In this document: positions 1-63,828 of the stretch, piece by piece
How the letters are laid out: each line of letters begins with the position of its first letter
Position numbering within the stretch: the stretch's first letter is position 1
Source: Catajapyx aquilonaris
Taxonomy: Eukaryota
Assembly (NCBI GenBank): GCA_000934665.2
Contig: KZ537997.1
Coordinates: 1 to 64,000 of the forward strand
Length of the DNA: 64,000 bases
Direction: 5' to 3'
Made by a program: the position numbers and the translations under genes
The notes under the pieces: generated by a model
Databases searched by the model: none
Told to the model about the DNA's origin: nothing
Seen by the model: only the letters and a program-made list of their open reading frames with translations

Positions 1-68
1 GCATTGATAGCTGAAATCATTCCATTTCCAATCCAAGGAGGAGGAATACCACCATGGACACAAAAAAT
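1..68 (-). CDS. Phosphatase exon 7 (partial)
   Basis: tttacag|[12 protein letters not shown]..., the conserved PPP HGG motif; continues beyond the window. Confidence 0.92.
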   Translation of the reverse strand, partial: MFCVHGGIPPPWIGNGMISAIN

Positions 69-3000
69 CTGTAAATAAGTTGATTTCTCTCAAGTTGGCT
101 ACTTTCATAATTATCTATTGTGCCAATGTCACATACTGTATGCTCTGGCAGAGCATAATATACTGGTACTGTAGTTGCTCTTAAAAACTACTTCATTCTC
201 TCACTTGGACTACCCCAATATATTGAGCAAAGTCAATGTCACTCACCTTTCCATCAATGACAGCAGCAACAGGCATTGAATCAAAGACCCCATTGATGGC
301 CTCCCATATCTCCTCTCCAAGCAGCTCCCCAAATTTCTGGTAACACTCCCTTTCAAAGCTGAACATGTGCTGTACATCCCTGATCTCATGGTTACCCCTT
401 AGCAGGTGGAACTTTGTTGGAGCTAGCACCTTCTGGGCAAGCAGGTAGGCAACAACTTCCACACCACAGTCACCACGGTCAACATAGTCACCCAAGAAGA
501 GGAAACTTGCAGGAGTTAATACCGGTCCCAGCCTCCACAGTGCCTTCTCAAAGCAAACCAGGTCACGAAAGTTGCCGTGGATGTCTCCCAGCACATACAC
601 TGGAGAGTGGAGTACCAAAAGGCGTGGTTCTTGCACCAGGATACCTTTAGCTTGTTTGCAGATACTAAGAAGGCAGCGACCCAGAGCAGGTCGGTCCACT
701 GCTCCCCAATCATAGGCCTCCTTGGAAGTTCGTCCTACCCCAAGACGCTCAGCAACCTCTTTCTTCACAGCTCGCTCAAAATACTTCAGACCATTGAGCA
801 TCTCATTGGGCTGTGACTTTTGGTTGAATGTATCCATTGAGGGGAGGCGTTCAAAGCGCAGCTTGGACCAGTTGTCTGATTGGTTCACTGCACCTGAGTC
901 TACAAATTGAAGAAAAAGCTATATAACTTTTGGGGTGCAAAGACAAGTTTAAACTGGGGCTCTGTTAGGCCATGCTTTAAACCCCAGTCTTTGGTTGCTA
1001 CGGCAGCATTTTGGCCTGAATGGGGGATTAAAAGACATCTTCATTTAGATCTGCATCTGAGATGGTTTAACCTGAGGTACAAAAATACAATGAGCACACC
1101 GAAGCAAGACCATGACCATGATTTTGATCAATTTCATCTTCATTGGCAATGGACATGTGGCCAAAATCCCCACAGATAATTTTCATCAAATTTGATGGGA
1201 ATGATGAAACACTCACAGGCCTATTCCTGATAATGATATTCATTGCAACTAGTCATTTTTATACTGCTTGTGAGAACCTCACATGAGTAAGGAGTGAATG
1301 ACTTCCTACATTGTCCACCTTGTCACCAAGACTTTTAATAGTACTGCATTGCATTATTTGCAATGGCATGTACTGTACCTTCCATAATAATTCATACAAA
1401 ATTATCTTAGTGGTCATTTCCCACCATTGGAACAGAACACTTGCTCTAAAACTAATGATGTCATACACAGCTATTGCAAGGAGAGTATCGGACTAGCTCT
1501 CCAACAATCTTTCCAACAGAAAAAATATGTCACTGGATGAATACTCATCTGGAGAGGTTCATTTCAGAATGACTTTTGAAGAGCATGTCTGATTATTATC
1601 AGGTATATGAATAGTGGCATTTCATCATGCATCTCACAGTCAGTCACTTAGGCAATGCAATATATGAGGGTTGGATTTTAAATAGTGACAACCTCTTTCC
1701 CCTTGTGCTCAGAAACGGGGTTGTGGCTTCTGTGCAAGAAGGGAGATCCAGACGGACATGGGGCTTGTTCATGTCAAGTTTGGACCCGATTGTGCTACTG
1801 GTGACAGTGACAGGGTAGTTCAAAGGGGCTGCATACTCATGCACCGCCCTACACCATGGCATCAAAGTTAAAACAGCACTCTTGGTGTCATATTGTGGTG
1901 GGCTGTACCTGAGGGCGGGACTATTAATGCCCAGTACTATCGCAAGTTCTTGAAACACCATCTGAGAGCAGCGATACGAGGCATACGACGCAAGCGACCG
2001 CACTACCTGAACAAAATCCCTATATCGTGTTGCATGACAATGTGCCTTGCCATGTCCCAGCTGCAGAGAGAGAATTATTGCTTCGTTGGCAATGAGAAAC
2101 ACTGGATCACCCTCCCTACTCTCCTGATATGAGAAGTTGCGATAGTACTGGACATTGACAGTCCTGCCTCGCCACCTCCATCTTCAACCAAGAGTGCTGT
2201 TCTAACTTCCATGCCATGGCTTAGGGTGGTGCATAAGGATGCGTCCCCTATGAACTACCCTGTCACTGTCACCAGTAGCCCAATCTGGTCCAAACTTGAC
2301 ACGAACAAGCCCCACATCTGTCTGGATCTCCCTTCTTGGGCAGAAGCCAGAACCCCGTTTCCATGCGCAAGGGGAAGAGGGTTGCCACGATTTAAAATCC
2401 AACCCTCGTATTTTAGTCAGGATGTTATGTATTTGAATATAACTTTCTAATGAGATATTACTTTTGCACATTTGTATTTAAGAGTAAGCTCCTAACTTAC
2501 GTTCGAGATCCCAGAGAGCGTTGACATCAACAACAGTCCCACTACGCTTGACCTTAACACAGTGTGTGGCTAATTCATACTCCTCATGACACATTACATA
2601 TGGCCCTGGAAACTCAGCCTGTCCACCACACATATCTGCCTCTTGCAGGTTCTCATCTGCCAGCAGCCTAGTCCCAATTAAGCTAGGCATACGATTCCGT
2701 TTTTGAGCTGATTCAGTTGCATCTGAAGAACTGATAAAATAATAACATAATATCAACTAATATTTACATTTGCATGGAAGTGCAATCTGTATCATGGTAC
2801 TCACCGCAACCGCTTCAGGAACACTAGGCATGATGATGGTAACCTGAGTAAGAGTGAGGTGCCCCTAAACTTAAGCTGGCCTACACCAGTCAGGAACTCA
2901 TTGAGGGTCAATACATCAGGTGAGTCAGCTCCAAATACCCTAGATGATAAGGACATAGGTTACAGAGGTAGTCAATAAAATCTTATGAAATGCTATGCTG

Positions 3001-5902
3001 CAGTGACCATGCTTTAATGAAGTGACTTCTCATGAATATATTATACTTGAGATATGAAGGCGAATCAGAAAGTAATTGAATACTTTTTTAATTCAGATGT
3101 TTCACTAAACTGAAACTGAGATAATCGGAGTTCTACTGTAGTTTAAGTGCCTTTTCCATATGCCAGGGGTCGAAATATTCAGAAGTAAAGGTGCAATTCC
3201 CATCCCCAAATTGTCATCTGCACTCCAAACTTTGCATTCCAATAATAATAATAATAATAATTTGGTATTGCTTTTTAACACAGCTAAGCCCAGTAATTAC
3301 AAATTAAGCATTCGTGTAATTTGCACTCCAGATGAATTGTCTGGAGTGCAAATTTGGCACCTGGACACAAAATTTAAGCTTAAACCCCTGATATGCTACA
3401 AATATTATACTGTATATTACAAATAGATCACATATTTGGCCAACTTACTTTGCACATTGATCTGCCTCCTTGTCCAGTTCTGAGTTGGCCATGGAAACAC
3501 CCCTGAGTTTGCGAATGTCAGCCACCATGCGTCTGAACTCATGGAACTCAATCCGATTGTCACAATTGTGATCATATAATCTGAAGATGTATCTACACCT
3601 CAGCTCTGCAGGAGGACCTCCATGTTGTGTACAGGGCTCCATAGCTGCCAGCCCATACATGAAGTCGCGGAATGACAAACCACCCCTGTTGTGGATGTCA
3701 AATGATCGGAACAAGTCACTCATACTGTCGTCAGGTGTGCCCAATTGCTTCATAAAGCATGAGAACAACGGGCGGTTCATCATTATGCATGGATAACATA
3801 TCCTGACAAACTCTCGGTATAGGAGGTCTTGCTCTGTAAATGATAAAATTAACAAGTTCATCATATGCAAGGCTCCCAAAAATATGGTCAGCAAGTGTTG
3901 GAGTTTTAAGGAGTCAAATATATCATTTTAAAAACCTTCCTGCATATCAGCACACTCTGCCATGTTATTGGTGCAACTACTACATGCATATTTGGAAAAC
4001 TCTGGTCACCCCATATTTAACAGCTTGCTGTTATTTTATATTTTCAAGCAACTTGAAATGCCAGAAAAACATGCAGTTATGTTAAGCTATGTAAAAATTT
4101 ATCCAAAAATTAAATCTAATTTTATTCATTTAGATTGAAGTGGTGACTCCCACTGACTTTAGGTAGCACTACTTTCAATTTGCACACAAATCCAAGATAA
4201 GAGTATCAGATATGATTATGCTTTCCAAAGTTATAGTGTGTGAATCTCTATATATCCATCTTCCTAACTCTCCTCATATGTCACTCCCTTCATCATATTA
4301 TATTCTACTTCACTCACCTACCCGCCCGAACTTGGCTGACTGCACCAGCATCTCATAAGAGCTCTTCCTTCCCTTGTTGGCTTCAGGCAAGACATACACA
4401 TTGGCAGCCCCAACTTCATTGAGAGAGTAGTTGGTTTGAAATTCCGTAGGGTCGTCCAACTTGCGGATCAGGTCCAATAACTCTGGGCTACGTAGGGAGA
4501 AGGAGCTGTGCAGGCGAGATATATCTGGTAGGCGCATCCATTGGCACAGCCTTTCCATTTCGTTGCTTAGGGTAATGTGCCGACCATTCTTCACAGTCAC
4601 GTGAAAAGTTACTATACTTGGTAGAAGTTCGACACCAGGGTACCATATCCTCTGGATCTTCACTGTTTGTTCACAATGAACACCTAAGTCTGAAAATATC
4701 TGCAAACAAAAATTTGCATAGAATTAGTCACCAATAATGTTTTTTTGTATTACGGGAGCATAGGAGTACACATCCACAAGCATGGTAGAGCCTACTTGTA
4801 ACAAGTAGTCACAGGAAAATATACAGGGTGGAGCAAAAGTCATGGGCGGATAAAACGACGCAGCATGGCGTAAGTAACGAACAATTATATATTTTTTAAA
4901 ATTACACTATGTAGAGAAAGATATGCCATTTATGGATCAAGGTCCAAAAACGTCACTTCTTGAAAACAACGCTGGATAGATGTCCATCTTTGCCAGCAAC
5001 ACATTCCTCCGAGTGCCGGATGAAACCCTTCATAACGCGCTCGAACACCAAACTCTTCAGGTACCCCCACAAGAAGAAGTCGGGGGTGGTCAAATCCAGC
5101 GACTGTGGCGGCCATGGAATGTCCACAAATCTCAAAATGACCTGCCCGGGAAATACACTTTACTTTTACTTTGTTTGGTGCTGTTCACCACACGTCCTCA
5201 GTCATTGGCTGATCTTAAGGATCAGATAAGAGACGCTGTGAGAAACATTCCCCTGGACATGCTGGAGAGTGTCATGAAGAGTTTCATCCAGCACTTGGAG
5301 GAATGTGTTGCCCGCAAAGGTGGACATCTATCCTGTGTTGTTTTCAAGAAGTGACTTTTTTTGGACCTTGATCCATAAATGGCATATCTTTCTCTGTGTA
5401 GTGTAATTTTTTTAAAGTATAATTGCTTATTACTTATGCCATGCTGCGTCATTTTAATCCACCCATGACTTTTGCCCCACCCTGTACTGTACATACTATA
5501 CCAATCATACCAATAAATGAATAATGCATTATTTTGTAAATAGGCTACCGAAGTAACCTATCTCAGTGATATGCATAATATCTGAATGCTTTGGCCTTTG
5601 GTTCATCGCACCTGCTTGAGAAGCCTATCCCCTGCCGACCTCCATGTCTCTCCCTCGAAGACCCTGGTGAATGGCAACCACCAGCCCTTCTTGTGCTCCT
5701 TCTCGTACATGAGGTACGACGCATCATCCCTGCTGCTGACCAGTATGCAGACGGCGTCCCAGATGCTGCTGGGATCCTCCCCTGTCATGGACTTCTCCCC
5801 TCGCAGCTCCTGCTGCAACTGGGCCACCCCGGTGTGCGATGCCAGTCCGGCGCCCAGCTCTTCCCGAGGAACCATGCCCTGCCCCATGGCCACCGAGGCC
5901 AT
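1..5902 (-). CDS. Multidomain PPP-family Ser/Thr protein phosphatase (Nudix-like N-terminus + EF-hands + metallophosphoesterase domain); whole gene span, 3' end runs off the window
   Basis: Exons 5612-5902, 4318-4699, 3449-3833, 2805-2939, 2501-2730, 247-899, <1-68. All introns are GT-AG with matching phases 0,1,2,2,1,0, giving about 714 codons in the window. PPP motifs GDIHG, GDYVDRG, RGNHE, HGG; EF-hand loop [12 protein letters not shown]. Confidence 0.92.
247..899 (-). CDS. Phosphatase exon 6 (PPP catalytic core)
   Basis: [22 protein letters not shown]; tttgtag| and AAG|GTGAGT. Confidence 0.95.
1665..2408. mobile_element. Non-autonomous mariner derivative with long inverted arms (two 5' ends)
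   Basis: TA on both flanks; termini (C/T)GAGGGTTGGATTTTAAAT; arms about 1665-1950 and 2132-2408; internal transposase relic [11 protein letters not shown]...LHDN...HPPYSPD. Confidence 0.9.
2501..2730 (-). CDS. Phosphatase exon 5 (linker)
   Basis: ttttatcag|, [11 protein letters not shown]...[33 protein letters not shown]. Confidence 0.88.
2805..2939 (-). CDS. Phosphatase exon 4 (degenerate EF-hand); absent from the ORF track
   Basis: catctag|[35 protein letters not shown]..., CG|GTGAGT; phase 2/2 fits both neighbours. Confidence 0.88.
3164..3390. mobile_element. MITE with CAGGGG...CCCCTG termini and a 6-bp direct repeat ATATGC
   Basis: ATATGC at 3158-3163 and 3391-3396; internal hairpin TTTGCACTCCAGA/TCTGGAGTGCAAA. 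Confidence 0.7.
3449..3833 (-). CDS. Phosphatase exon 3 (EF-hand pair)
   Basis: [22 protein letters not shown] and [18 protein letters not shown]; acceptor tttacag|, donor AA|GTAAGT. Confidence 0.92.
4318..4699 (-). CDS. Phosphatase exon 2
   Basis: Acceptor tttgtttgcag|, open frame IFSDLGVH...SAKFGRV, donor G|GTGAGT, phase 1. Confidence 0.85.
4824..5484. mobile_element. Tc1/mariner-superfamily fold-back derivative (two 3' ends)
   Basis: TA flanks; TIR CAGGGTGGRGCAAAAGTCATGGG; roughly 210-bp inverted arms; transposase C-terminal relics on both strands ([20 protein letters not shown]; ...[11 protein letters not shown]). Confidence 0.9.
5612..5902 (-). CDS. Phosphatase exon 1 (start; degenerate Nudix-box-like motif)
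   Basis: AAG-ATG-G start at 5902; MASVAMGQG...[26 protein letters not shown]; donor CAG|GTGCGA, phase 0. Confidence 0.8.
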
Positions 5903-6336
5903 CTTGGTGAATACCTTGGACCCAGCAATTTTGAACTGATCACCGGGGGTCAGACCCCGGCTACGGACACTTGAGAATTTTGCGTTTTCCCGCACTGCAG
6001 TAAACGAACAGCACACGACAAATTTCACAGCTGTCTTTTGTTCAGCTAGCGTAGTTCCGTTGCCAAGTGCAGAAAAAATAATCATTGCAGTCAGTTAGCA
6101 GCGTTAATATTACTTTTAAGAGTATTAATTTATAAAACGATATAAATGATATGAATGATGATTATTATATCATTACTTTCTCTTTTTTGGTAGTTCATGA
6201 CCTGGCCATCTTGGCGTGTTTTACCGCCATGTTGAGTTCCTGACCTCGTGCAACGCACATTGCACACTTGCACCGACTGTTAATCGTTCCTGCGTTTATT
6301 TGCCCTCAGCTGCACACCAGACTGCCTCCAGGTGAG
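5903..6336. promoter_or_regulatory. Probable bidirectional promoter shared by the phosphatase gene and ZNHIT3
   Basis: Start codons diverge 434 bp apart; YY1/Pho-like GCCATCTT (6205-6212) and CGCCATGTT (6225-6233). Confidence 0.6.
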
Positions 6337-6404
6337 ATGTCGACGTGCCAGGTGTGCCGGGAGAAGGACAGCAAGTACAAGTGCCCTGTCTGCAGACTCC
6401 CCTA
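6337..6404 (+). CDS. ZNHIT3: ZNHIT3 exon 1
   Basis: MSTCQVCREKDSKYKCPVCRLP, TA|GTAAGT. Confidence 0.92.
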
Positions 6405-8931
6405 GTAAGTATTGAACTTACAAGTTAGCTGACCTGACTTGAACCAGTTTCAGCATTATAGTTTGACGCCTTAATGAGGAGGTATCAAACTTTTTATAAT
6501 TTTTGCAATTGGGGCAAAAGGCCTGGCTGACTTTTCCCACCTTTGGCCATATAAAATTTTCCTTGTCGTGTGCTGCTACAGTCGACTGCGGATGTAAGAG
6601 ACTTCAAGGGACCGTGGAGGTCAGTATCATATAACTGAGATTTGCTATATCCAAATGCACAGGCCTATGATATTGGCAATAATTATTATGGGTTGCTTTT
6701 AGTATAGAGGCTCTCACATACGGAGTCGACTGTATTGCAGGGTGTTCCTTACTGAGAGACTGAAAATGTTATCAATTTCTGCATCCGACAGGTTACGCTA
6801 ATGGCAGATAATAAGGTATTGGAAATTCTCACTGCCAGCTCTGCAGAAAACTTTCCACAGCATACAAGTTTCTACTATACCTATAGGGTCCTCTATGGGC
6901 GGGTTTATTGTAATGTTGTTGACTTGTTGGCTTCAAAAACTTAAATGAGCATGGATTTAGTTGGATCAGTCACTCTCCGCATTAAGGCCCATTCACACAG
7001 GCCGTCGACGGTTTTGTTTTTTTGGTCTCGTCGACCCCGCGGACCAATCAGAGCGGGCCCTCACGGTATCCATGACGCGTTGTTTACGTGAGGGCCCGCT
7101 CTGATTGGTCTGCGCGGTCGACGAGACCAAAAACCAAAACCGTCGACGGCCTGTGTGAATGGGAATTATACAGGAATTTGGAAAATTTTAAAAAATTAGA
7201 AATGGTTATGGTATCCATACATTTGTGTTTTACATTATGGACTATCACTTTCCTGTCATTTGTCTCACTGTTTGATAACTGCATACTGATATTACATGAT
7301 CTAATTGCCTTGATGTAGTTGAGAACATGTTTGTCAGCTAGCAGTTAAGTTTGCTGTGCAATCTGTTTGTATATACTGCAATGTACACCTTCCATCCTGC
7401 TCATAGCTGTTCTCTAACCTGCTACAAGCAGCACAAGGAGAGTAAATGTGAACCTGGTAGTGAAGAAGCATCTCAAGCTCTACCTAATTTACAAGTTCCC
7501 GGGAGCCAAAATTATGAGGTCCCTGAAGAGGACACTGTATCTGAAGAGTTGCTCAACCAGCTTGGTGAGACACATTTAATATTGCATCCCTGTCTACTGT
7601 GCGGAAAACGAAACGGCGATCTGACGTCATCAAGGTTTCCATGGAAATACCCTCACAGAACAATATGAGTAAACCACGGTCTAATATAAGGTCTTGCAAC
7701 TCCCTCCCCTATGTGTGAGCTTAGTTGTGCACAGGTTTGGCGCTGTCATCTTCCACAGAACACAACTTTGACGTCACGTTCGGGTCACGTTCAGGTGGCT
7801 GGCTCTGTGACTTTCCCTACTGACCCAGCTGCATTAGAAAGAATGGTTCAGGTTGGTTCAGAAAAGTATCTGCCCAAATGTGACTCGAACATGACGTGAA
7901 AGTTGTGGAGCGACGCCAGGGCCAAATAGAACATTCTACCATGGGGGGCGGGGGGGGGGGGGGGGGNNNNNNNNNNNNNNGGGGGGGGCTGGAGTAAACA
8001 GTAGCAACAAAAAGCAATAATGTAAGAAATGATGACATCAGCTCGTCGTTTGGTTTTCCGCACTTTAGACCATGCCAACCCATGCTTTATACCAAGATAC
8101 CAATGGCTACCATGGTAACTCATGGGAAACTCCTTCATTGCTTTTGGTCAGTTTCACCATGGTGATGGGGAAACTACCACTGCAATTTTGGACTAGGAAA
8201 GGTATAACTTAGTTGTTTTATTGTAGTTGAATTGATGTACAATAATAGACATTACTGGAGATGTAGTTAAAAGTGGAACTTCTTATAATGCATTGACAAT
8301 ACAAGTTTATTTGATAGAGTTTATTTCGCAATCTAGTTCTCATTCACCTGTGTTGAAGTCAATGTACGTGACTGCTGTTTGAATGTCAGAAATCAGTAGT
8401 CGCTATTGTACCTGTTCCAACTTGGTAAAATTGGAAATGAGAGTTGAGAGAACTCATATTCACAAGATTGTGTAATGTGCATGTGCTTGTTTGTGCAACA
8501 AAGTACCGTGGCAGAATGTCCAAAATTTGACTCAGGTTTTTATGAAGGACAATTCAGAATACTGCCTGGATTATTTACACAATTCACATTCTCATTTAAA
8601 AAGACGACAAATATTTGAACATCAAGTTTGTGTCCACTTTATAATAATGATTTGTGTATCATCATTCATTAGGAAATGTTCTGTTAACTTTGTTTTTGTT
8701 TTTTTAGAGCAAAGTGAAGGAATTAAGCAAGTGCTGCGTAATCCACATTTGAGGGAAATGCTAGTGGCAGTGCACCAGAGTTCAAATCCAACTAGGGCTA
8801 TGCAGCTTGCAATGATGGAGCCTATTTTTGCAGAATTTGCAAATGAATGCATGCAAATAATAGAGCCTGGTGAGGGGACACCTGCAAGCACCCAGGTTGA
8901 GATTGAACCTTCATATGATGGAAATGTGTAA
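6337..8931 (+). CDS. ZNHIT3: Zinc finger HIT domain-containing protein 3 (box C/D snoRNP assembly factor), 149 aa; whole gene span
   Basis: Exons 6337-6404, 7407-7564, 8708-8931 (phases 2,1). zf-HIT CQVC...KYKCPVCRLPYCSLTCYKQH; C-terminal LRNPHLREML...AMMEPIFAEFANECM. AATAAA at 8959-8964. Confidence 0.92.
6579..6732. mobile_element. pogo/Tigger-like MITE
   Basis: TA|CAGTCGACT...AGTCGACTG|TA, imperfect TIR of about 21 bp. Confidence 0.8.
6985..7166. mobile_element. Hairpin MITE (near-perfect inverted arms of about 78 bp)
   Basis: Arms 6988-7065 and 7087-7163 with a 21-nt loop; CCCATTCACAC...GTGTGAATGGG termini; T/A-rich flanks. Confidence 0.85.
7407..7564 (+). CDS. ZNHIT3: ZNHIT3 exon 2
   Basis: catag|C, CSLTCYKQHKE...EDTVSEELLNQL, G|GTGAGA. 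Confidence 0.92.
7591..8071. mobile_element. MITE with TIRs of about 40 bp, possibly Mutator-like; spans an assembly gap (N 7967-7980)
   Basis: GTCTACTGTGCGGAAAACGAAACGGCGATCTGACGTCATCA (7592-7632) is inverted at 8030-8070; the 9-bp flanks match at only 5 of 9 positions. Confidence 0.65.
8708..8931 (+). CDS. ZNHIT3: ZNHIT3 exon 3
   Basis: tttttag|AG, QSEGIKQVLRNPHLR...YDGNV*. Confidence 0.92.
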
Positions 8932-37000: not shown

Positions 37001-40000
37001 TAAGAACTAACGAGGCAGTGCACTTAGTGCCTATTGTCTCAGTTGCCTGAACCCTAGTGTAGAGCATTCCGGCGATATGACGGGGATAATCTAGGTGCCA
37101 GTTGAACAATGTTGCTAGTATGCGAGCAATTTGGGTTTATTTCAGGAAGCTCCGGAGGTCAGGTATAAAACTATAAAAAAACAACTATAAAATTCGTCAA
37201 CGCCAACAGTCAAATGCTAGCATTTATAAAATAAGCGGTATGCTAATGAACCTTCGCAACCAACAAGAGTTGTGTTGGAAAGGTAGATGAATGGAATAAA
37301 GGCCACGCCTGGAAAAGTTTGGGGGCTGGTCTGAGATGTCATTGTGTGTAAATGTGTCGAGAGGGCTTGTCCGACTGAGGGCCACTCGGCGGAGATTACA
37401 AATGATTATGATAGCCCCAAGTGTATTTTTGTCCGGATGTATATTCAGGGGTATATGGGAGGTTTGAATCATCACTTAAAACCAACCATACTATCTCTTT
37501 TCACGTGCAGGTTGGATAATGGAAGCAGGTCGGGTCCGGCCAACGATCACGTGAGGAGAGAATTGAGCCGAGCTCTGGAGGTTTGGTCTCGCCATTCCAG
37601 GCTCAAGTTTCGTGAAACCCTTGGAGAAGCGGATATTGTGGTGCAATTTGCCAGGTAAGCGGTACACACATTGTTGTTGCCACACGTGACAGAAATACAG
37701 TGTGTATTTAGACAGCACCATCTAGGGTGATTTTAAGTTTAATTTTAATTTTATGTCCTACGTGACTTTCCACAGCCGGTACCACAACGATGGGTATCCT
37801 TTCGATGGTCCTGGGCAAGTGTTGGCCCACGCCTTCTTCCCTGGTAGTGGTCGAGGAGGGGACGCGCATTTCGACGACGAAGAGCGATGGGCAGTCAACG
37901 CCTACGTCGCCGACGGTGAGTCCAATGGGCGAATTAATGGTGACTCATCCTCTTGTCTGGAAACAACCCAGAGGATGTGGCACTTAATTGCCGCCAATTC
38001 GGAGGGCTGCGACATTTTCCGCGGGAGATTCTCGTAATCGTTGGATTCCTTGCGGCGTCTCTGGACGAATTGCAGCAGTAATTCTTACTCGAGGAATTTT
38101 GCCCATAAATATTGTTTTAACCCAGATATGCCTAGTGTCCTACATATAGGACACTTGCTTCCAAATTGCCCCATACATGACAAATATGTGTATTGTCTAT
38201 CAGGTGAGACCAGCTTGTTCGCCGTGGCCGCCCACGAATTCGGACATTCCTTGGGTCTGGCCCATTCGTCCAAGGAAGGCGCCCTGATGAACCCGTGGTA
38301 CCAGGCATTTGGGGAAGATTTCGATCTTCCGGATGACGACCGCTATGCCATTCAGCAGCTGTATGGGCGCGGTGGTGCCGATGGGGAGTTGGCCACGCTG
38401 CCCCCCATGCCCACCCCAAGGCCCACCAGACCCCCGGACCATAAACCCACCAGCAGGCCCACAAGGAGGCCCTCATCGGGTGGGGAGCATGGAGGGAAGC
38501 CTTCCACCTGTGACACTTCTTATGATGCTGTGTCTGTCATAAGGGGGGAGTTGTTTATCTTCAAAGGGAAGGTGGGTGCAGTTGTCATTGCATTCGGTCT
38601 TAATTGTCACTTATTATTAGTGGCAGTTGAAAAATTGGTATTACAATAATCATGAGGGAACTAATAATATTATTCAGATGGAACTGGCTGCAGGTGTTAG
38701 AAAAAGGTGCACCTTTACTGCTAATATTTATTCAATGAGAAAATAGACATCAAAATGAGCAACAGTTACTTTTAACAATGTCAGCAATGAAAGTAACAAG
38801 ACTAGTGTTTGTGATGTCAATACCAGTTTTATTCAGAGAAATGGAATAAGTAATCTCCAACATAGTGTAGACTAATTTACATTTGAGGAGTGTGGTGGAA
38901 AAACATGACAACCCTCAAAAGGGTAATTTTTCAGGAGAGCAAATTGAAGTTTGCAATTTTATCACAAATCATAGGGAATACTTTCAGAGAGTGGGCAGTA
39001 GTTGCAGAACGGCAGTCATGTAACTAGTGGGGCTGAATTGTAGGACATGTAGGGCTGGCATGATCCTGTACGTCCAGTACTTCAACATTATCATGGTCAA
39101 ATGAATTTTGCCACATAATGGTTTTGAGTAACAGTTGTGACTGATTAAGATAATCCTTGACATTCATTGCAGTATTTTTGGCGCATCAGTCGTGATGGAT
39201 TGAAGTCCAACTACCCTGTGGAGATAGAGCGCTTCTGGTATGGTATGCCTAAAAACCTTAGCCATGTGGATGCAGTGTATGAGAGGCAGGACATGAAGAT
39301 TGTTTTCTTTATTGGTGCGTACTTATAACGTTCAGGACCTGACTGACCACTAACTTTGAATTGTCCAACCAATAGGACAATATTTCTGGGTGTTTGAAGC
39401 CAACAACCTACTGGATGGTTATCCCCAGCCTATATCAGTCTTAGGGCTGCCCATGGACATTGAACAGGTGGATGGGGCCATGGTGTGGGGACACAATCGG
39501 AAGACTTATCTGTACAGTGGGACCATGTATTGGAGATTAGATGAGGATGGAAAGGCTGAATTGGATTATCCTCGTGACATGAGCATGTGGAGAGGAGTTC
39601 CATATGGAATTGATTCTGTTTTCCAGTGGACGGATGGTATGTAAAGTGTATAGGAGATAATAAGGTGCTGTACTTTTCTAGGTAGGCCTAGCGTTAATCA
39701 GGATTGATTAATCTGACATTGTGTGTGAAAGAAATATAATTATATTCACAAGTAACATTTAAAAGTAGCAGCTTACTGCCAGAAAATATTTAACTACAAC
39801 ATTGACTTAAGTGGAATAACCTGCACATATTTTAGAGATTTTTATGCAACAAAAAGAAATGGGCATCGTCTAACACTATAACATTTCCATAAAAATTAAA
39901 ATACAATTTCTGGAAGATACCTAGTGAAAATGTCAAGCTCAAAAAATTGAAGATGCACTAGTTTGAAGCTCATTTCTATAACTCCAGGAACAGATATTGA

Positions 40001-40981
40001 CAAACTGAGTTTCACTCTTTCATCCAATATTACTAGGAACAACTCCCACTGAAAGTTAGTGATTCACAGAGCAAAATCAATCCTTGGGGCTCAGTTGTTT
40101 TCCAGATTACATTACATAATTATGTGGTTATGGTAATATTGTTTCATACAAATATTTCAATTTAAGGTGTGACAAGAAAATGTACATTCCTCTTACAGTG
40201 TTGTGCAAGATGCTAAATGTTACACCTGCTTGGTAGCTTGCTCGTGTTTACTGGTGTAGCAGCTAAAGGCACCTTTGAACAGGCCCGATCCATATGAACC
40301 AACAACTAACGCATTTCTTCCCCTTGATTAGAGCTGCAGTAGCGGAATTGCAACTTTGGCTTATTCCCATTCTCGCTTGTCAGTTGAGGGCAAGGAGTTC
40401 ACAAGGAAAAATTTAGTACTGTGGGATTTATTCTCCCTAAGTTTTTCTGTCACTCCCTCTTCCACTGCTTCCTAATAGAATTACTGCTGCCTTTAAACTG
40501 GTAAAATGCTTAACTTGTGCAGGTTAGCATTACTTAGATGGGCGGGAGGGGAGATGCAATACTGAGTAAGAAATTTGTTCATGCCATACACAGAAAGACT
40601 GCTTGTTATCAAATAACCTGCAATTAAAAAGAAATTTTCAAATACTGAAGATATAATACAAAGGTTGAAGCTTTGAAATGCTGTGTTTCTGCACATGTGT
40701 AATGATAATTTTTCTTTTCAGGGAAGACATACTTCTTTAAGGGAAAGGTATTTTGGCGCTTTGATGACATGAGGATGCGAGTGGAGAGCAAAACCCCATC
40801 CCTCTCCGCCCCATTTTGGATGGGCTGCCCCACCAAGATAACAGGAGAGGAGAGGATGCAAGGTGACCCTATCCCAGAGCAGCCTCCAGTTCCATCATCG
40901 GCCTCAATAGCTGACAGTTTTGTGGCTCTTCTGGTGATAATCTTAGTGCTGCCAATTTGGAGGAAGAATGTTACATGCTGA
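18995..40981 (+). CDS. Mmp2: Membrane-anchored matrix metalloproteinase, insect Mmp2-like, 560 aa; whole gene span
   Basis: Exons 18995-19093, 30768-30869, 31084-31250, 37511-37654, 37776-37915, 38204-38571, 39173-39314, 39376-39636, 40722-40981; phases consistent. Signal peptide, PRCGLPD cysteine switch, RSKR furin site, [11 protein letters not shown] zinc motif, ALM Met-turn, Pro-rich hinge, hemopexin repeats, hydrophobic C-terminal tail. Confidence 0.92.
30768..30869 (+). CDS. Mmp2: Mmp2 exon 2 (prodomain)
   Basis: [34 protein letters not shown]; ttttcag| and CAG|GTATAC. Confidence 0.93.
31084..31250 (+). CDS. Mmp2: Mmp2 exon 3 (cysteine switch, furin site)
   Basis: PRCGLPD...[27 protein letters not shown]. 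Confidence 0.95.
33560..34920 (-). mobile_element. Heavily decayed non-LTR retrotransposon RT, L1/Tx1-like, in Mmp2 intron 3
   Basis: Minus-strand fragments in correct RT order despite frameshifts: [16 protein letters not shown] (about 34070-34093), [23 protein letters not shown] (about 33932-33986), YLGV (about 33581-33592). No intact YADD seen. Confidence 0.55.
37511..37654 (+). CDS. Mmp2: Mmp2 exon 4 (catalytic)
   Basis: [22 protein letters not shown]...[15 protein letters not shown]. Confidence 0.93.
37776..37915 (+). CDS. Mmp2: Mmp2 exon 5 (catalytic)
   Basis: [36 protein letters not shown]. Confidence 0.95.
38204..38571 (+). CDS. Mmp2: Mmp2 exon 6 (zinc site, hinge, start of hemopexin domain)
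   Basis: [15 protein letters not shown]...[28 protein letters not shown]. Confidence 0.95.
39173..39314 (+). CDS. Mmp2: Mmp2 exon 7 (hemopexin)
   Basis: [26 protein letters not shown]...VDAVYER...IVFFI. Confidence 0.93.
39376..39636 (+). CDS. Mmp2: Mmp2 exon 8 (hemopexin)
   Basis: QYFWVF...[20 protein letters not shown]...[12 protein letters not shown]. Confidence 0.93.
40722..40981 (+). CDS. Mmp2: Mmp2 exon 9 (end of hemopexin domain, membrane anchor, stop)
   Basis: [15 protein letters not shown]...FWMGC...[21 protein letters not shown]. Confidence 0.92.
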
Positions 40982-50200: not shown

Positions 50201-53200
50201 TGGCGGGGTGTTTATGCAGCGGCTGAGTAGCCCACACCCTATGTTGGTCATGAGGTGAAAGCACTATTGTAATACCCCGTGTCTAACACCGGCCCTATCT
50301 GAGAAATGTCGCAAATGTGGCATTAAGACAATAGGGGTAGCCCCTGCCAATCTATAGAAATACTCGCATTGTACTTTTTGTGTATAGCTAAATATGGATC
50401 TTTCACATATTTCAATACTTTGATGGTATGACCTTTCCTAACGGTTGTTGTGCTCAACCTGTTGCCTTGTATGTAGTCCACATTGGCGGCTAGGGGGTTG
50501 CCAGATGGCCCCCACCATGAGGTAGGAAAAGGTCGGTGATTAATGTAAAAAAAAAAAAAAGTCACGCAGTATGTACGTCGTGGAGCCATAATGAGGGGGC
50601 CGCACGTGGGTGTAACAGTGGGGTGACGTCGGTTGTTCGATATTACGGGCAGTACGCACCTGAGTCCCGGCCAATTGGGATGGACCGGAGGTGTACTGTA
50701 CCCTAGGAATGTGTGGGTTGACGTCAACAATTTTTGCGCATCGGGAAATTGGCAAAATTTTTGTATGACCCCCACGAGGTGCCGTTACCGTACTTGCGGG
50801 CACTTGCGGGTACGGCGTGGGAAACCTGCGAGGGGTCAGAGGCCTTGTGAATTATTTGGGATGAACAGCCCATGGGCGAATAATGCATGCTGGACCTTGA
50901 ATTTGCGTAACATAATACCGCTATCGGATTCACCAAGCATGAATGATATTTTTTTTTAAAGTAACTGGTGTTGGCAGACTGAAGCAAATTGCTTGTCTGG
51001 TCAGTTATAGATAACCCCGACCCCGGGTTGACATCTGCCACCAGCTGAACCTATTCATATCCTCGTTGACATTATAAACGTGTGTCGGCTTTTGATCCAG
51101 GAATTGAGATTGGGAAATAATATAATCAGGCGGCACACATTCTTGGTGTTACACAACCAGGCAATGAGCCCCACTGTAATTACGTGTCGATTCAGTTCTG
51201 TAGGTTGTGGCCCACAATCAACGGGTGGTATGGAATGAATTTTGCATTGCCAGCTGAGTTGTAATGGTGTTATTACAAGCATTAGTTGAATCTTTCTGCT
51301 ACAGGCATCACTGGGTTATTTTAGTTGAGGCCACTAAAGAGCTCAGACCTTTGTCACCCTCTGAACAATAGTGGGGAGAAAGGGTTGCTGGCTGAATTGG
51401 GTCTGGAGGATGATCAGATGGTCCTTCCCCTCACACCCAGTGTCAATGCCATTTTATTTATGGTCCACCCACACTGTGCCAAGGGGACCTAAGTATCCTT
51501 CAATCATATGGATTAGGACCTTTTCTGCTCTGTTGGGAGCCTTTATTCTTGCACAGGAAATGAGCATGTGTAGGACCCTGCATGAAATGTAGGCTCTGTG
51601 GGCAATAATATTTAAATTATAATGGTCATTCAGTATCCAAATGGATGAGTTTCTTCCCCAGGGTATTAGCGGTAATGGGTGTGGGAAGGAGAGAAAAACT
51701 AGACCTTGAGAAAAAAATCTTGATGCTGTTCATTGTGGAATGTTCCCGATGGAAGCATGCAGACAGAGCAAAGAAATGGGAAGGGATCCTGAGGAACATG
51801 TGGTGCTGAAGAGTAGGCAGTTTTATTTTCAGTCAGATTCTCCCACCTATTTGTAGTCGCAAGCGCTGCGCCCTAAATCCCCTAGGGGGAACTTGGCTCT
51901 TGGTAATGAACTACTTGGCTTGCAGTCTGCGTACAGTTTTTGTTTTTGACTATTTTTATGTTGTGTTACTGAAAATCACTTTTGTTACAGGAATTCTTAC
52001 AGATATCCAGAGCTACTACCACATAGGCAATGATGAAGGTGGCTTGCTTCAAACAGCATTCATTATCAGCTACATGCTTTTTGCCCCCCTTTTTGGCTAC
52101 CTTGGTGACCGCTACAGTCGCAGGGCCATCATGGCTGTTGGAGTGTTCCTTTGGTGCCTCACAACTCTCTTGGGCTCTTTTATGGAAGTAAGTAGGCTAC
52201 CTAGCGAAGGATTGTGGTTAGAACTGATCGCAATAATTTCAAGTTCCTAATAATATTTGCTGAAAAGTTAAGCTTAAAGTTTTGCCACCTTTCCAACTTC
52301 ACGTGGCTGCATTAGAGAACGTTTTGTATAATTTGTTATGCCAATACTAGGAAATGCTCAATTAGAAGGATTTTAAAATGGTCCTAACACCTTCTGTGGC
52401 CATTTGAAGTTTGAGAAAGTTGTTTCAAATACAGAGTTCTCAGTTGGAGATTTCAGTAGGTAAAAAAGCTGGTTTAATTTATTTTTTTTTCTAGTAGGCT
52501 ATAGGAACACCCTCTTTAAAAATTATTTTGATTGGAGCCAATAACGATCCTGGAAGGGATCCTTTCATATTGGCACGCAAAAGTAAGGAAAAAATTGCAA
52601 TTGCTTGATGACTTCTAAGTTGCACTTGACATGAAGAAATGAAGCTAATTTTGTCCTCAAGTGGAGAGCAATGAGTTAATTGCTGCAAGATTGCACATAC
52701 TTTGGGCAATATTGACCTTAAGAGTAATGATGTGTAAGTGACACTTGCACTCTTGGCCATGACATTGAAGATAAATGGTTGTTGTCCCCTGGGCGACTAG
52801 AGGAAATTGTGCCAACAGGAGGAAAAAAGTGCTTCCCAGAACATGTCAGGAAATAAACATCAATCCATATAATTATGTTGAAATTTTAAATAAAATGCTG
52901 AAGCATCCTGGTGGAAATGGCCAACCTAAGGAATTTGTACCATGGTCAATGAGCCCTTCAATCCAAGCCTGATATTATATCAGATATTGCAGTTAGTGTT
53001 AATCATGAGGCCTGTCATTGGATTGGATGATTAATTTGTCCTAAGGAGAGGGATGATAAAGGATCCAGCATGTGTTGAAGTGACCTTATAAAAATATACA
53101 CCTAGGACTCTGTCTACCAGTCATGACAATAATTTTTTTTGTTAATTTCAGCAATTTGAGTGGTTTTTGGTGTGCCGTGCTCTTGTTGGGATTGGAGAGG

Positions 53201-63074: not shown

Positions 63075-63828
63075 CAGGGTTTGGCAAAATTTATAACAGG
63101 ATTTGAATCACGTGGTATGGGGTGCTATTTGCACATGAGCGAGAGATTGGGATGTGCTGGAGTGGGGAAGGTATGCCATTTGCAAAAATAGCGTCGTGGT
63201 CAGCAGAAAACCATGCTTTCGTCGTGGAGGATTATTTTGAAAATAATGAGTCCCCCATAGCTGTACAAAGTATCTTTCTTCGTCTTTTTGGGCTGGAACC
63301 TCAGGACAAAGTCCCTGACCACCGGACGTTCATAAAGTGGGTGAAGCAGTTCTGGGACACAGCTTCAAGCCGGGACCAGACAGCACTGGATGTAAAAGGA
63401 CACATCAGACCCCTCAACGGAGCTTCAAATGGCCTATCGCTGAGAACTTCAGAGTAGAGTATTGCTTACCTCTTGTACCCGTTGAGGGGTCCTGTGTTCT
63501 TTGACGTCCAGTGCTTTCTGGTCCCGGCTTGAAGCTGTGTCCCAGAACTGCTTCACCCACCTTATGAACGGTCTGGTGGTCGGGGACTGTGTCCTGACGT
63601 CCCAGCCCAAAAAGACAAAGAAATATCCTTTGTACAGCTACGCGGAACTCATTATTATTTTTTAATGTAATTCTCCACAACAAATGCATAGTGTTCTGCT
63701 GACCATGACGCTATTTTTGAAAATGGCATACCTTCCCCACTCCAGCACATGCCAATATCCAACTCATGTGCAAATAGCACCACCGTACCATGTGATTCAA
63801 ATACTGTTATTCATTTTGCCCAACCCTG
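63075..63828. mobile_element. Tc1/mariner-superfamily fold-back derivative (two 5' ends)
   Basis: TA|CAGGGTT...AACCCTG|TA; arms of about 345 bp (63075-63420, 63479-63828); transposase N-terminal HTH relic WSAENHAFVVEDYFENNESPIAVQSIF...VPDHRTFIKWVKQF in both orientations. Confidence 0.9.

Follow-up and report, generated by a model that had tools for sequence, protein, structure and literature searches.

In animals the textbook phosphoprotein phosphatases (PPPs) are PP1, PP2A, PP2B, PP4-6, and PPEF, and the Bsu1/PPKL type is usually ascribed to plants and alveolates. Here we analyze a gene at one end of a 64,000 nucleotide stretch of DNA from Catajapyx aquilonaris (assembly GCA_000934665.2, contig KZ537997.1, positions 1 to 64,000; in the following the window). 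Its minus strand encodes a single protein in which a Nudix-like N-terminal domain, an EF-hand module, a linker, and a PPP catalytic domain follow one another. We hold with good confidence that this is an animal version of the EF-hand-bearing Bsu1/PPKL-type branch of the PPPs, i.e., a protein of about 800 amino acids (aa) made up of a Nudix fold, an EF module of the neuronal calcium sensor (NCS) type, a linker, and a PP1-like core. Of the approximately 800 aa, 714 lie in the window.

Two kinds of described proteins come close. EF-hand-bearing, kelch-less sequences have been placed among the Bsu1s as 'Bsu1s with EF hands' (Kerk, Mattice, Uhrig & Moorhead 2021, Sci Rep 11:13681, PMC8249667). They are listed in Thecamonas, Monosiga, Salpingoeca, Basidiobolus, and Nannochloropsis; thus the class itself has already been noted in protists and choanoflagellates (PMC8249667). 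The animal family to which the Catajapyx gene belongs shares the properties described for them (PMC8249667): its EF-hand domain is positioned N-terminally, kelch repeats are absent, and the catalytic domain is of the Bsu1 type. Compared by eye, the EF-hand Bsu1s and a Cryptosporidium entry share with the animal family the motifs ..AM[ED]P.T.HGG...R..YIF..YD...DG......F and ..[KR]..G[TS]..LFR.. (PMC8249667). The differences are twofold. In the available part of the article no animal and no Nudix domain is named, the term 'Nudix' occurring 0 times in the main text, and the visible N-termini of the Thecamonas and Monosiga proteins go straight into EF-hand sequence (PMC8249667), whereas in the animal family an additional Nudix-fold domain of about 150 aa is placed in front.

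The second kind is EFPP/PP8, described as apicomplexan-specific, with N-terminal EF-hands, catalytic mutations, doubtful activity, and a size of 218 kDa in Toxoplasma (PMC8355824). It resembles the animal family in having a long N-terminal region with EF-hands ahead of the PPP domain (PMC8355824, PMC8785970). EFPP is very large and carries substituted catalytic motifs (PMC8355824), whereas the animal proteins comprise about 800 aa and have intact catalytic motifs in 60 out of 60 members. Neither the very long N-terminus nor the motif substitutions of EFPP are present in the family. A 2720 aa protein from Besnoitia matches our EF-module profile with 37 bits and our catalytic profile with 149 bits, the EF module being N-terminal to the catalytic domain. 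It branches beside the family clade, has the layout described for EFPP, and may be an orthologue of it. With EFPP/PP8 (PMC8355824) and the EF-hand Bsu1s (PMC8249667) already in print, the first-pass annotation of this DNA went too far in proposing an 'undescribed system'. What is new, as far as the open-access literature was searched, is that the clade is broadly represented in animals and that a pseudo-Nudix domain has been added: there, neither a protein uniting Nudix, EF-hand, and PPP domains nor any animal member of the clade was found. A ciliary proteomics preprint (10.1101/153437) mentions no phosphatase.

The gene consists of seven GT-AG exons (coordinates are collected in the table). 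With the junctions read base by base, the joined frame comprises 714 codons and 0 stops; all six donors are GT, all six acceptors are AG, and the phases are 0, 1, 2, 2, 1, 0. Exon 1 codes for a poorly conserved N-terminus, the first Nudix-like strands, and a degenerate Nudix box (about 5612-5668). It aligns with the N-termini of 23 homologues, and in tblastn the homologues P0050, P0032, P0099, and P0005 match 5609-5758. The start at 5902 is the proposed one; an in-frame ATG located upstream at about 6085 may be used instead. Exon 2, which aligns with the second half of the N-terminal domain of the homologues, carries the remainder of the Nudix-like domain and a tail into the conserved SAKFG..EQ, where the EF module begins. 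Exon 4 encodes a degenerate fourth EF-hand-like helix pair and a conserved 10-residue motif. A direct joining of exons 3 and 6 is precluded by their phases, which are 2 at the end of exon 3 and 1 at the beginning of exon 6. The gene leaves the window at position 1, fifteen codons past HGG. About 100 C-terminal residues known from homologues fall outside; among them are the second arginine clamp, the histidine of RAHE, and the beta12-13 loop.

The first-pass annotation had postulated a single spliced chain. This stands insofar as about 224 Nudix-like aa, the EF-hands, and the PPP domain share one frame; exons 4 and 5 had been missed. All motifs which it quoted (the EF-hand pattern, the loop, GDIHG, GDYVDRG, RGNHE, and HGG) are indeed located on the minus strand. 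Its 'intact PPP domain' is correct for these four PPP motifs and overstated with respect to the C-terminal residues beyond the window.

The joined product tracks the homologue consensus free of gaps over every junction. Profiles built from 60 homologues matched it with 70 bits for the Nudix-like domain (residues 46-190), 237 bits for the EF module, 124 bits for the linker (exons 5-6), and 307 bits for the catalytic half. Pfam identified EF-hand_7/6/1 in exon 3 (E 1.8e-9 to 4.8e-9) and Metallophos in exon 6 (2.4e-17). Profile and Pfam scores of this size indicate that the pattern is not due to chance.

In our search exon 6 had 2680 longer relatives. The best 120 of these, proteins or fragments, are 56-68% identical to exon 6 and 391-990 aa long, mostly about 800 aa, except for the unnamed P0001 (1168 aa, 52% identical). 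Counted from species names, all named homologues among the best 120 are from animals and represent at least 17 phyla: arthropods, molluscs, a priapulid, nemerteans, echinoderms, annelids, a brachiopod, cnidarians, hemichordates, amphioxus, tunicates, a bryozoan, a ctenophore, sponges, tardigrades, a flatworm, and rotifers; mites and a moth were added later. Vertebrates are missing from the named family hits within the best 120-150 matches listed, which is no proof of absence. Most homologues are annotated as 'uncharacterized protein', and the automatic names which do exist are in conflict, i.e., PP1, PP2A, SIT4, BSL1, BSU1, 2B, and pef-1. Several homologues, such as P0004, P0005, and P0014, reside on contigs of 2.7-4.4 kb with an uninterrupted frame of about 2.4 kb, which is consistent with spliced mRNA and with a single transcript in other species.

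Using our own profiles, the order Nudix-like/EF/linker/catalytic is conserved in 111 of 382 proteins, and 31 more have it without a linker match. Among 60 full-length members Pfam reported Metallophos in 60, EF-hand_6 in 57, NUDIX in 5, and Kelch in 0. When 1.84 billion cluster representatives were searched with a profile, 4182 proteins came out at E <= 1e-30, a number that takes in PPPs generally; the best 150 are all below 1e-87. In the alignment used for the tree, the catalytic half nearest to that of the window is 71% identical (Haliotis).

Astigmatid and oribatid mites (P0284, P0297, P0298, P0316, P0280) possess several divergent family copies per species. Dermatophagoides farinae and Blomia tropicalis have two separate clusters each, and some mite copies no longer match the Nudix-like profile.

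To which lineage does the phosphatase belong? The tree of catalytic domains was calculated with IQ-TREE (LG+G4, 59 rows, 1000 ultrafast bootstraps and the Shimodaira-Hasegawa-like approximate likelihood ratio test, SH-aLRT; support is given as bootstrap/SH-aLRT). It contained 19 family members including the window protein, 21 relatives which are unnamed or from protists, and named outgroups excised from mis-fused long proteins, with calcineurin A as the outgroup. Two rows with very long branches were dropped, one a protein from Caenorhabditis nigoni, the other the second domain of a protein from Peronospora; a quick tree with 61 rows was also made. The family and its protist relatives, whether EF-bearing or bare, make up a single clade (40 rows, 100/99). 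Kelch proteins from Babesia and Monocercomonoides, the metagenomic P0425, and the 2720 aa Besnoitia protein join it, which gives a group of 44 rows with a support of 100/96. The PP1-type sequences stand apart in a clade of their own (7 rows, 99/100). A distant clade (100/97) is composed of three proteins; EF-hand Pfam matches occur in two of them, one of which also matches PPP5. Thus, in a tree with two kelch rows and no PP2A, the family groups with the kelch type rather than with PP1. BSU1/BSL of plants and PPKL of alveolates are the nearest named catalytic lineage in this tree; the family differs in lacking kelch and in forming a clade of its own. The N-terminal kelch beta-propeller is absent: no kelch match was obtained in the four window exons scanned, in 60 members, or in 61 representatives from the 150 listed. 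Exon 6, the N-terminal half of the catalytic domain, has as best solved matches Arabidopsis BSU1 with 103 bits, PP2A with 99, and PP1 and calcineurin with 96 each. Similarity scores alone are not decisive; it is the tree that places the family beside the kelch type. The protein is none of PP1-PP7, PPEF, or calcineurin. The earlier claim of a position outside the textbook animal PPP classes is borne out: PP1 is a separate clade, the EF-hands are N-terminal, unlike in PPEF, and the homologues have no calcineurin-type C-terminal tail.

The cryptophyte/MMETSP proteins P0279, P0283, and P0157 are found inside the animal clade on a long stem. The trio itself is supported with 100/100, its position is weak, and the cluster of P0279 includes records from Hanusia phi and Guillardia theta. 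This placement may be due to contamination, gene transfer, or a long-branch artefact.

The catalytic core is well preserved. Each of the motifs GDxHG, GDY[VI]DRG, GNHE, and HGG occurs in 60 of 60 homologues, and the window has all four; every family-invariant catalytic residue located within the window is retained. Among the homologues, conservation reaches at least 90% at the C-terminal Arg-Gly and RAHE positions (R739, G740, and H766 in P0008, a homologue from a tick). Because the metal-binding motifs are intact, the product is very probably an active Ser/Thr phosphatase. In a fold search with the full-length model of P0008 (VIA-align) only residues 483-815, i.e., the catalytic core, were matched. 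They superimpose on PP1/PPZ1 with Z of about 40 and a root-mean-square deviation of 1.9 A over 289-291 residues at 33-35% identity; the region of exon 6 corresponds to the start of this PP1-aligning core. The preceding linker, encoded by exon 5 and the start of exon 6, contains a conserved segment, YELATH.VKV.R.G...LWDL, forming a short strand and helix. Most of the P0008 linker is predicted to be disordered (predicted local distance difference test, pLDDT, <50 at 382-428 and 442-484 in the full-length model). A PP1-type RVxF docking motif was not seen in the linker consensus by eye; no formal scan was made.

The EF module comprises four EF-hands encoded by exons 3 and 4. The best solved relative of the EF exon is yeast NCS-1 (E 3.3e-10), followed by frequenin, hippocalcin, GCAP, and KChIP, whereas calcineurin B is matched with E 1.4e-3 only. 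Of the earlier label 'recoverin/calcineurin-B-like', the first part is therefore the better one. The NCS-1 alignment spans the Cys-Pro of the degenerate EF1 through EF3, and the EF1 proline is present in 52 of 60 members. The proteins of the NCS family have four EF-hands with a degenerate EF1 carrying Cys-Pro, functional EF2 and EF3 sites, and N-terminal myristoylation. Judged by its loops, the module examined here is NCS-like and not a member of the NCS family: EF2 is degenerate in 60 of 60 members. Nor can it be myristoylated, since it is internal in the chain. With D-x-[DNS]-x-[DNSG]-x6-[DE] as the canonical loop pattern, EF3 is the sole fitting loop in the window, just as one good loop with degenerate neighbours had been read earlier. 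Among the homologues the EF3 loop fits this pattern in 44 of 60; its position 12 is Glu in 56 members and its position 1 is Asp in 47. EF2 and EF4 fit it in 0 of 60, and EF1 is degenerate in the manner of the NCS proteins. In 16 of 60 members the EF3 loop departs from the canonical pattern, so that Ca2+ binding is not common to the whole family. With three dead sites out of four, and with EF3 lost in those 16 members, we rate regulation of the phosphatase by Ca2+ as an even bet.

The N-terminal 224 residues are encoded by exons 1 and 2. Pfam gave no match in the Nudix-like region of the window exons; in the full-length homologues with a NUDIX match the best E value is 2.2e-13. An AlphaFold model of the 197 aa N-terminus of P0008 (25 aligned rows) has a pLDDT >90 over residues 20-160. 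When this model was compared with the PDB by Foldseek, every listed match was a Nudix fold with a probability of 1.00, and 432 matches had E <= 0.001. Listed are Ap4A hydrolase 3i7u at the top (E 2e-7), RppH, NUDT12, MutT, and CFIm25 (E about 1e-5). Thus, the homologue model displays the Nudix fold, an alpha/beta/alpha sandwich, as the reading of this region as Nudix-like had anticipated, and the classical catalytic glutamates are lost. Of the Nudix box, GX5EX7REUXEEXGU, the three glutamates of REUxEE are kept in 0 of 60 members. The window sequence has RLLKQI in this place, and the position of the first glutamate is mostly hydrophobic (of 60 members L in 32, I in 11, V in 5, F in 4, and W in 4). 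By these signatures the domain has kept the fold and lost classical Nudix hydrolase catalysis; because the catalytic glutamates are gone it is predicted to be unable to act as a classical Nudix hydrolase.

Most likely, the Nudix-like domain is a binding or regulatory module. What it binds may be another protein or a ligand of the nucleotide type; a nucleotide-type ligand taken by itself is conceivable, though we would not count on it. Precedents are at hand. The NUDT9-homology domain of TRPM2 is a Nudix fold without a working Nudix box which binds rather than hydrolyzes. CFIm25/NUDT21, which we take to be a non-catalytic Nudix protein, likewise resembles the animal domain in having the fold, no working box, and a binding function. 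No specific kinship with non-catalytic Nudix domains is evident. At the top of the fold matches stand ordinary bacterial Nudix hydrolases, with only 12-20% identity. The gene would then be a further instance of a Nudix fold retained for non-hydrolytic use.

The structure of the gene, the folds of the domains, the state of the motifs, the degree of conservation, and the placement in the clade are matters of observation; for the function in animals we infer the following scheme. Binding of Ca2+ at EF3 would change the shape of the sensor module, and the changed sensor module would, in cis, alter catalytic activity or access of substrates. Such a scheme would parallel PPEF/PP7 and calcineurin, with a different position of the sensor and a different catalytic lineage. 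In PPEF (in cis) and in calcineurin (via the B subunit) EF-hand sensing is coupled to a PPP core, a likely parallel to the animal family. The sensor of PPEF is C-terminal, whereas that of the family is N-terminal, and the NCS-like EF-hands as well as the catalytic lineage differ. The PPEF/RdgC arrangement is not encountered, because the family EF-hands are N-terminal and the homologues end with the catalytic domain; nor was an IQ motif noted, although no search aimed at it was made. Similarly, calcineurin A is not matched, since the homologues have no sequence past the catalytic core, where its B-subunit-binding helix, calmodulin-binding site, and autoinhibitory peptide would lie, and the solved calcineurin match covers the core only (150 bits).

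Several points weigh against the assignment to an EF-hand-bearing, Bsu1-type, calcium-sensing phosphatase. The last third of the catalytic domain is beyond the window, so that the gene is only presumably intact. The proposed junctions follow from sequence logic and homology, a search for RNA runs over positions 1-6100 having listed none, and activity and Ca2+ dependence alike are predicted. The EF3 loop is non-canonical in 16 of 60 members, as detailed above. The full-length model of P0008 has a predicted template modelling score of 0.51 and offers no confident domain arrangement. The tree contains only two kelch rows, both long-branched, and no plant BSL, PP2A, PP4-6, or PP5; support is weak (44/94) at the node where PP1 and the Bsu1-type group meet. 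Finally, the full catalytic domain of P0008 prefers PP1 (193 bits) over BSU1 (185 bits), with calcineurin at about 150-155 bits.

Among the alternatives, that of an active phosphatase whose EF module does not signal calcium survives best. The module would be a fixed structural or targeting domain, with regulation via partners or phosphorylation. Degenerate EF-hands often are structural or targeting domains, every member examined has three degenerate EF-hand-like sites out of four (EF1 as well as EF2 and EF4, the latter two canonical in 0 of 60), and the 16 members which lost the EF3 consensus nevertheless keep the rest of the module. Yet EF3 is canonical in the window and in 44 of 60 homologues across distant phyla, the pattern expected of a site selected for Ca2+ binding. 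We therefore regard this alternative as possible, although unlikely.

A bolder version of the in cis sensor scheme is also conceivable. In a two-signal gating, a nucleotide metabolite bound to the Nudix-like domain and the single-site Ca2+ sensor would jointly gate the Bsu1-type core in cis, and vertebrates would have lost the gene; we consider this a long shot. Candidate ligands, named with the same strong reservation, might be ADP-ribose, Ap4A, NAD(H), or a capped nucleotide. If true, animals outside the vertebrates would carry an unrecognized eighth kind of PPP, and loss in vertebrates would explain its neglect.

Much less likely is an artefact or a dead gene, i.e., exons of two neighbours misjoined, or a pseudogene. 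No RNA run is listed for the locus, transposon-like remnants in the form of paired related open reading frames (ORFs) on opposite strands reside in introns 5 and 1, and the gene meets the window edge. Against this stand an open frame of 714 codons over six phase-matched junctions, the retention of the invariant catalytic residues located in the window, and the same domain order in 111 proteins of many phyla, some on transcript-like short contigs. We give this explanation hardly any credence. Least tenable of all, and in our view next to impossible, is an assignment to PPEF/RdgC or calcineurin A as a divergent form, for which NCBI pipeline names ('phosphatase with EF-hands pef-1-like' for one orthologue, '2B catalytic subunit' for another) and, as a lead only, a chordate PPEF cluster in Atlas at a feature score of 0.75 may be quoted, whereas the automatic names of the orthologues are mutually inconsistent, the catalytic match of P0008 ends at residue 815 of 815 and leaves no room for C-terminal EF-hands or a calcineurin-B-binding or calmodulin-binding tail, and both the calcineurin A outgroup and the EF-hand/PPP5-bearing clade (100/97) are far from the family in the tree.

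Table. Positions of the phosphatase gene, its motifs, and other features in the window.
Feature	Position	Strand	Remarks
Exon 1	5612..5902	-	97 codons; proposed ATG 5902-5900; donor GT 5611-5610
Exon 2	4318..4699	-	382 nucleotides, ends in phase 1; acceptor ...tttgcag/AT, donor G/gtgagtg
Exon 3	3449..3833	-	EF1-like (C.P motif), degenerate EF2, canonical EF3
EF3 loop	3538-3573	-	12 residues, within exon 3
Exon 4	2805..2939	-	phase 2 in and out; tblastn, 8 of 8 homologues match 2807-2947
Exon 5	2501..2730	-	linker; tblastn, 7 of 8 homologues match 2457-2729
Exon 6	247..899	-	PPP N-terminal helices and first half of catalytic core
GDIHG	574-588	-	exon 6
GDYVDRG	472-492	-	exon 6
RGNHE	385-399	-	exon 6
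Exon 7	1..68	-	reaches window edge; acceptor ttacag/ATT; tblastn, P0003, P0011, P0005 match 3-71
HGG	48-56	-	exon 7
Remnant ORF pair, intron 5	1644-2183 / 2133-2450	- / +	related ORFs
Remnant ORF pair, intron 1	4930-5184 / 4980-5354	- / +	related ORFs
ZNHIT3-like gene, zf-HIT exon	6244-6405	+	E 1.3e-5
ZNHIT3-like gene, ZNHIT3_C exon	8476-8928	+	E 4.8e-17
Assembly gap	~7940-7960		15 N
Matrix metalloproteinase gene	37335-40978	+	
Peptidase_M10 exon ORFs	37335-38646	+	three ORFs
Hemopexin-repeat ORFs	39360-39641, 40709-40978	+	
Exon-like ORF	51810-52247	+	E 1.3e-12 and 3.6e-6
DUF4817 ORF	63107-63454		helix-turn-helix

A ZNHIT3-like gene is positioned head-to-head with the phosphatase gene. Its likely ATG is about 430 bp away from the ATG at 5902, and the two genes may share a bidirectional promoter. 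The assembly gap adjoins a proline/glycine-rich simple stretch. Elsewhere in the window there are a matrix metalloproteinase gene, an exon-like ORF with matches to the Major Facilitator Superfamily and OATP, and an ORF with a DUF4817 helix-turn-helix. Queried with an exon of the metalloproteinase gene, Atlas returned clusters from Arthropoda and from Chordata with equal scores.

For the biology of the PPPs the meaning is as follows. Until activity and Ca2+ dependence are measured the practical value is modest; the family would, however, provide a compact test case for the regulation of a PPP core in cis. A Bsu1-type lineage equipped with its own calcium-sensor module is widespread in animals, and the missing vertebrate hits may explain why it has not been studied.

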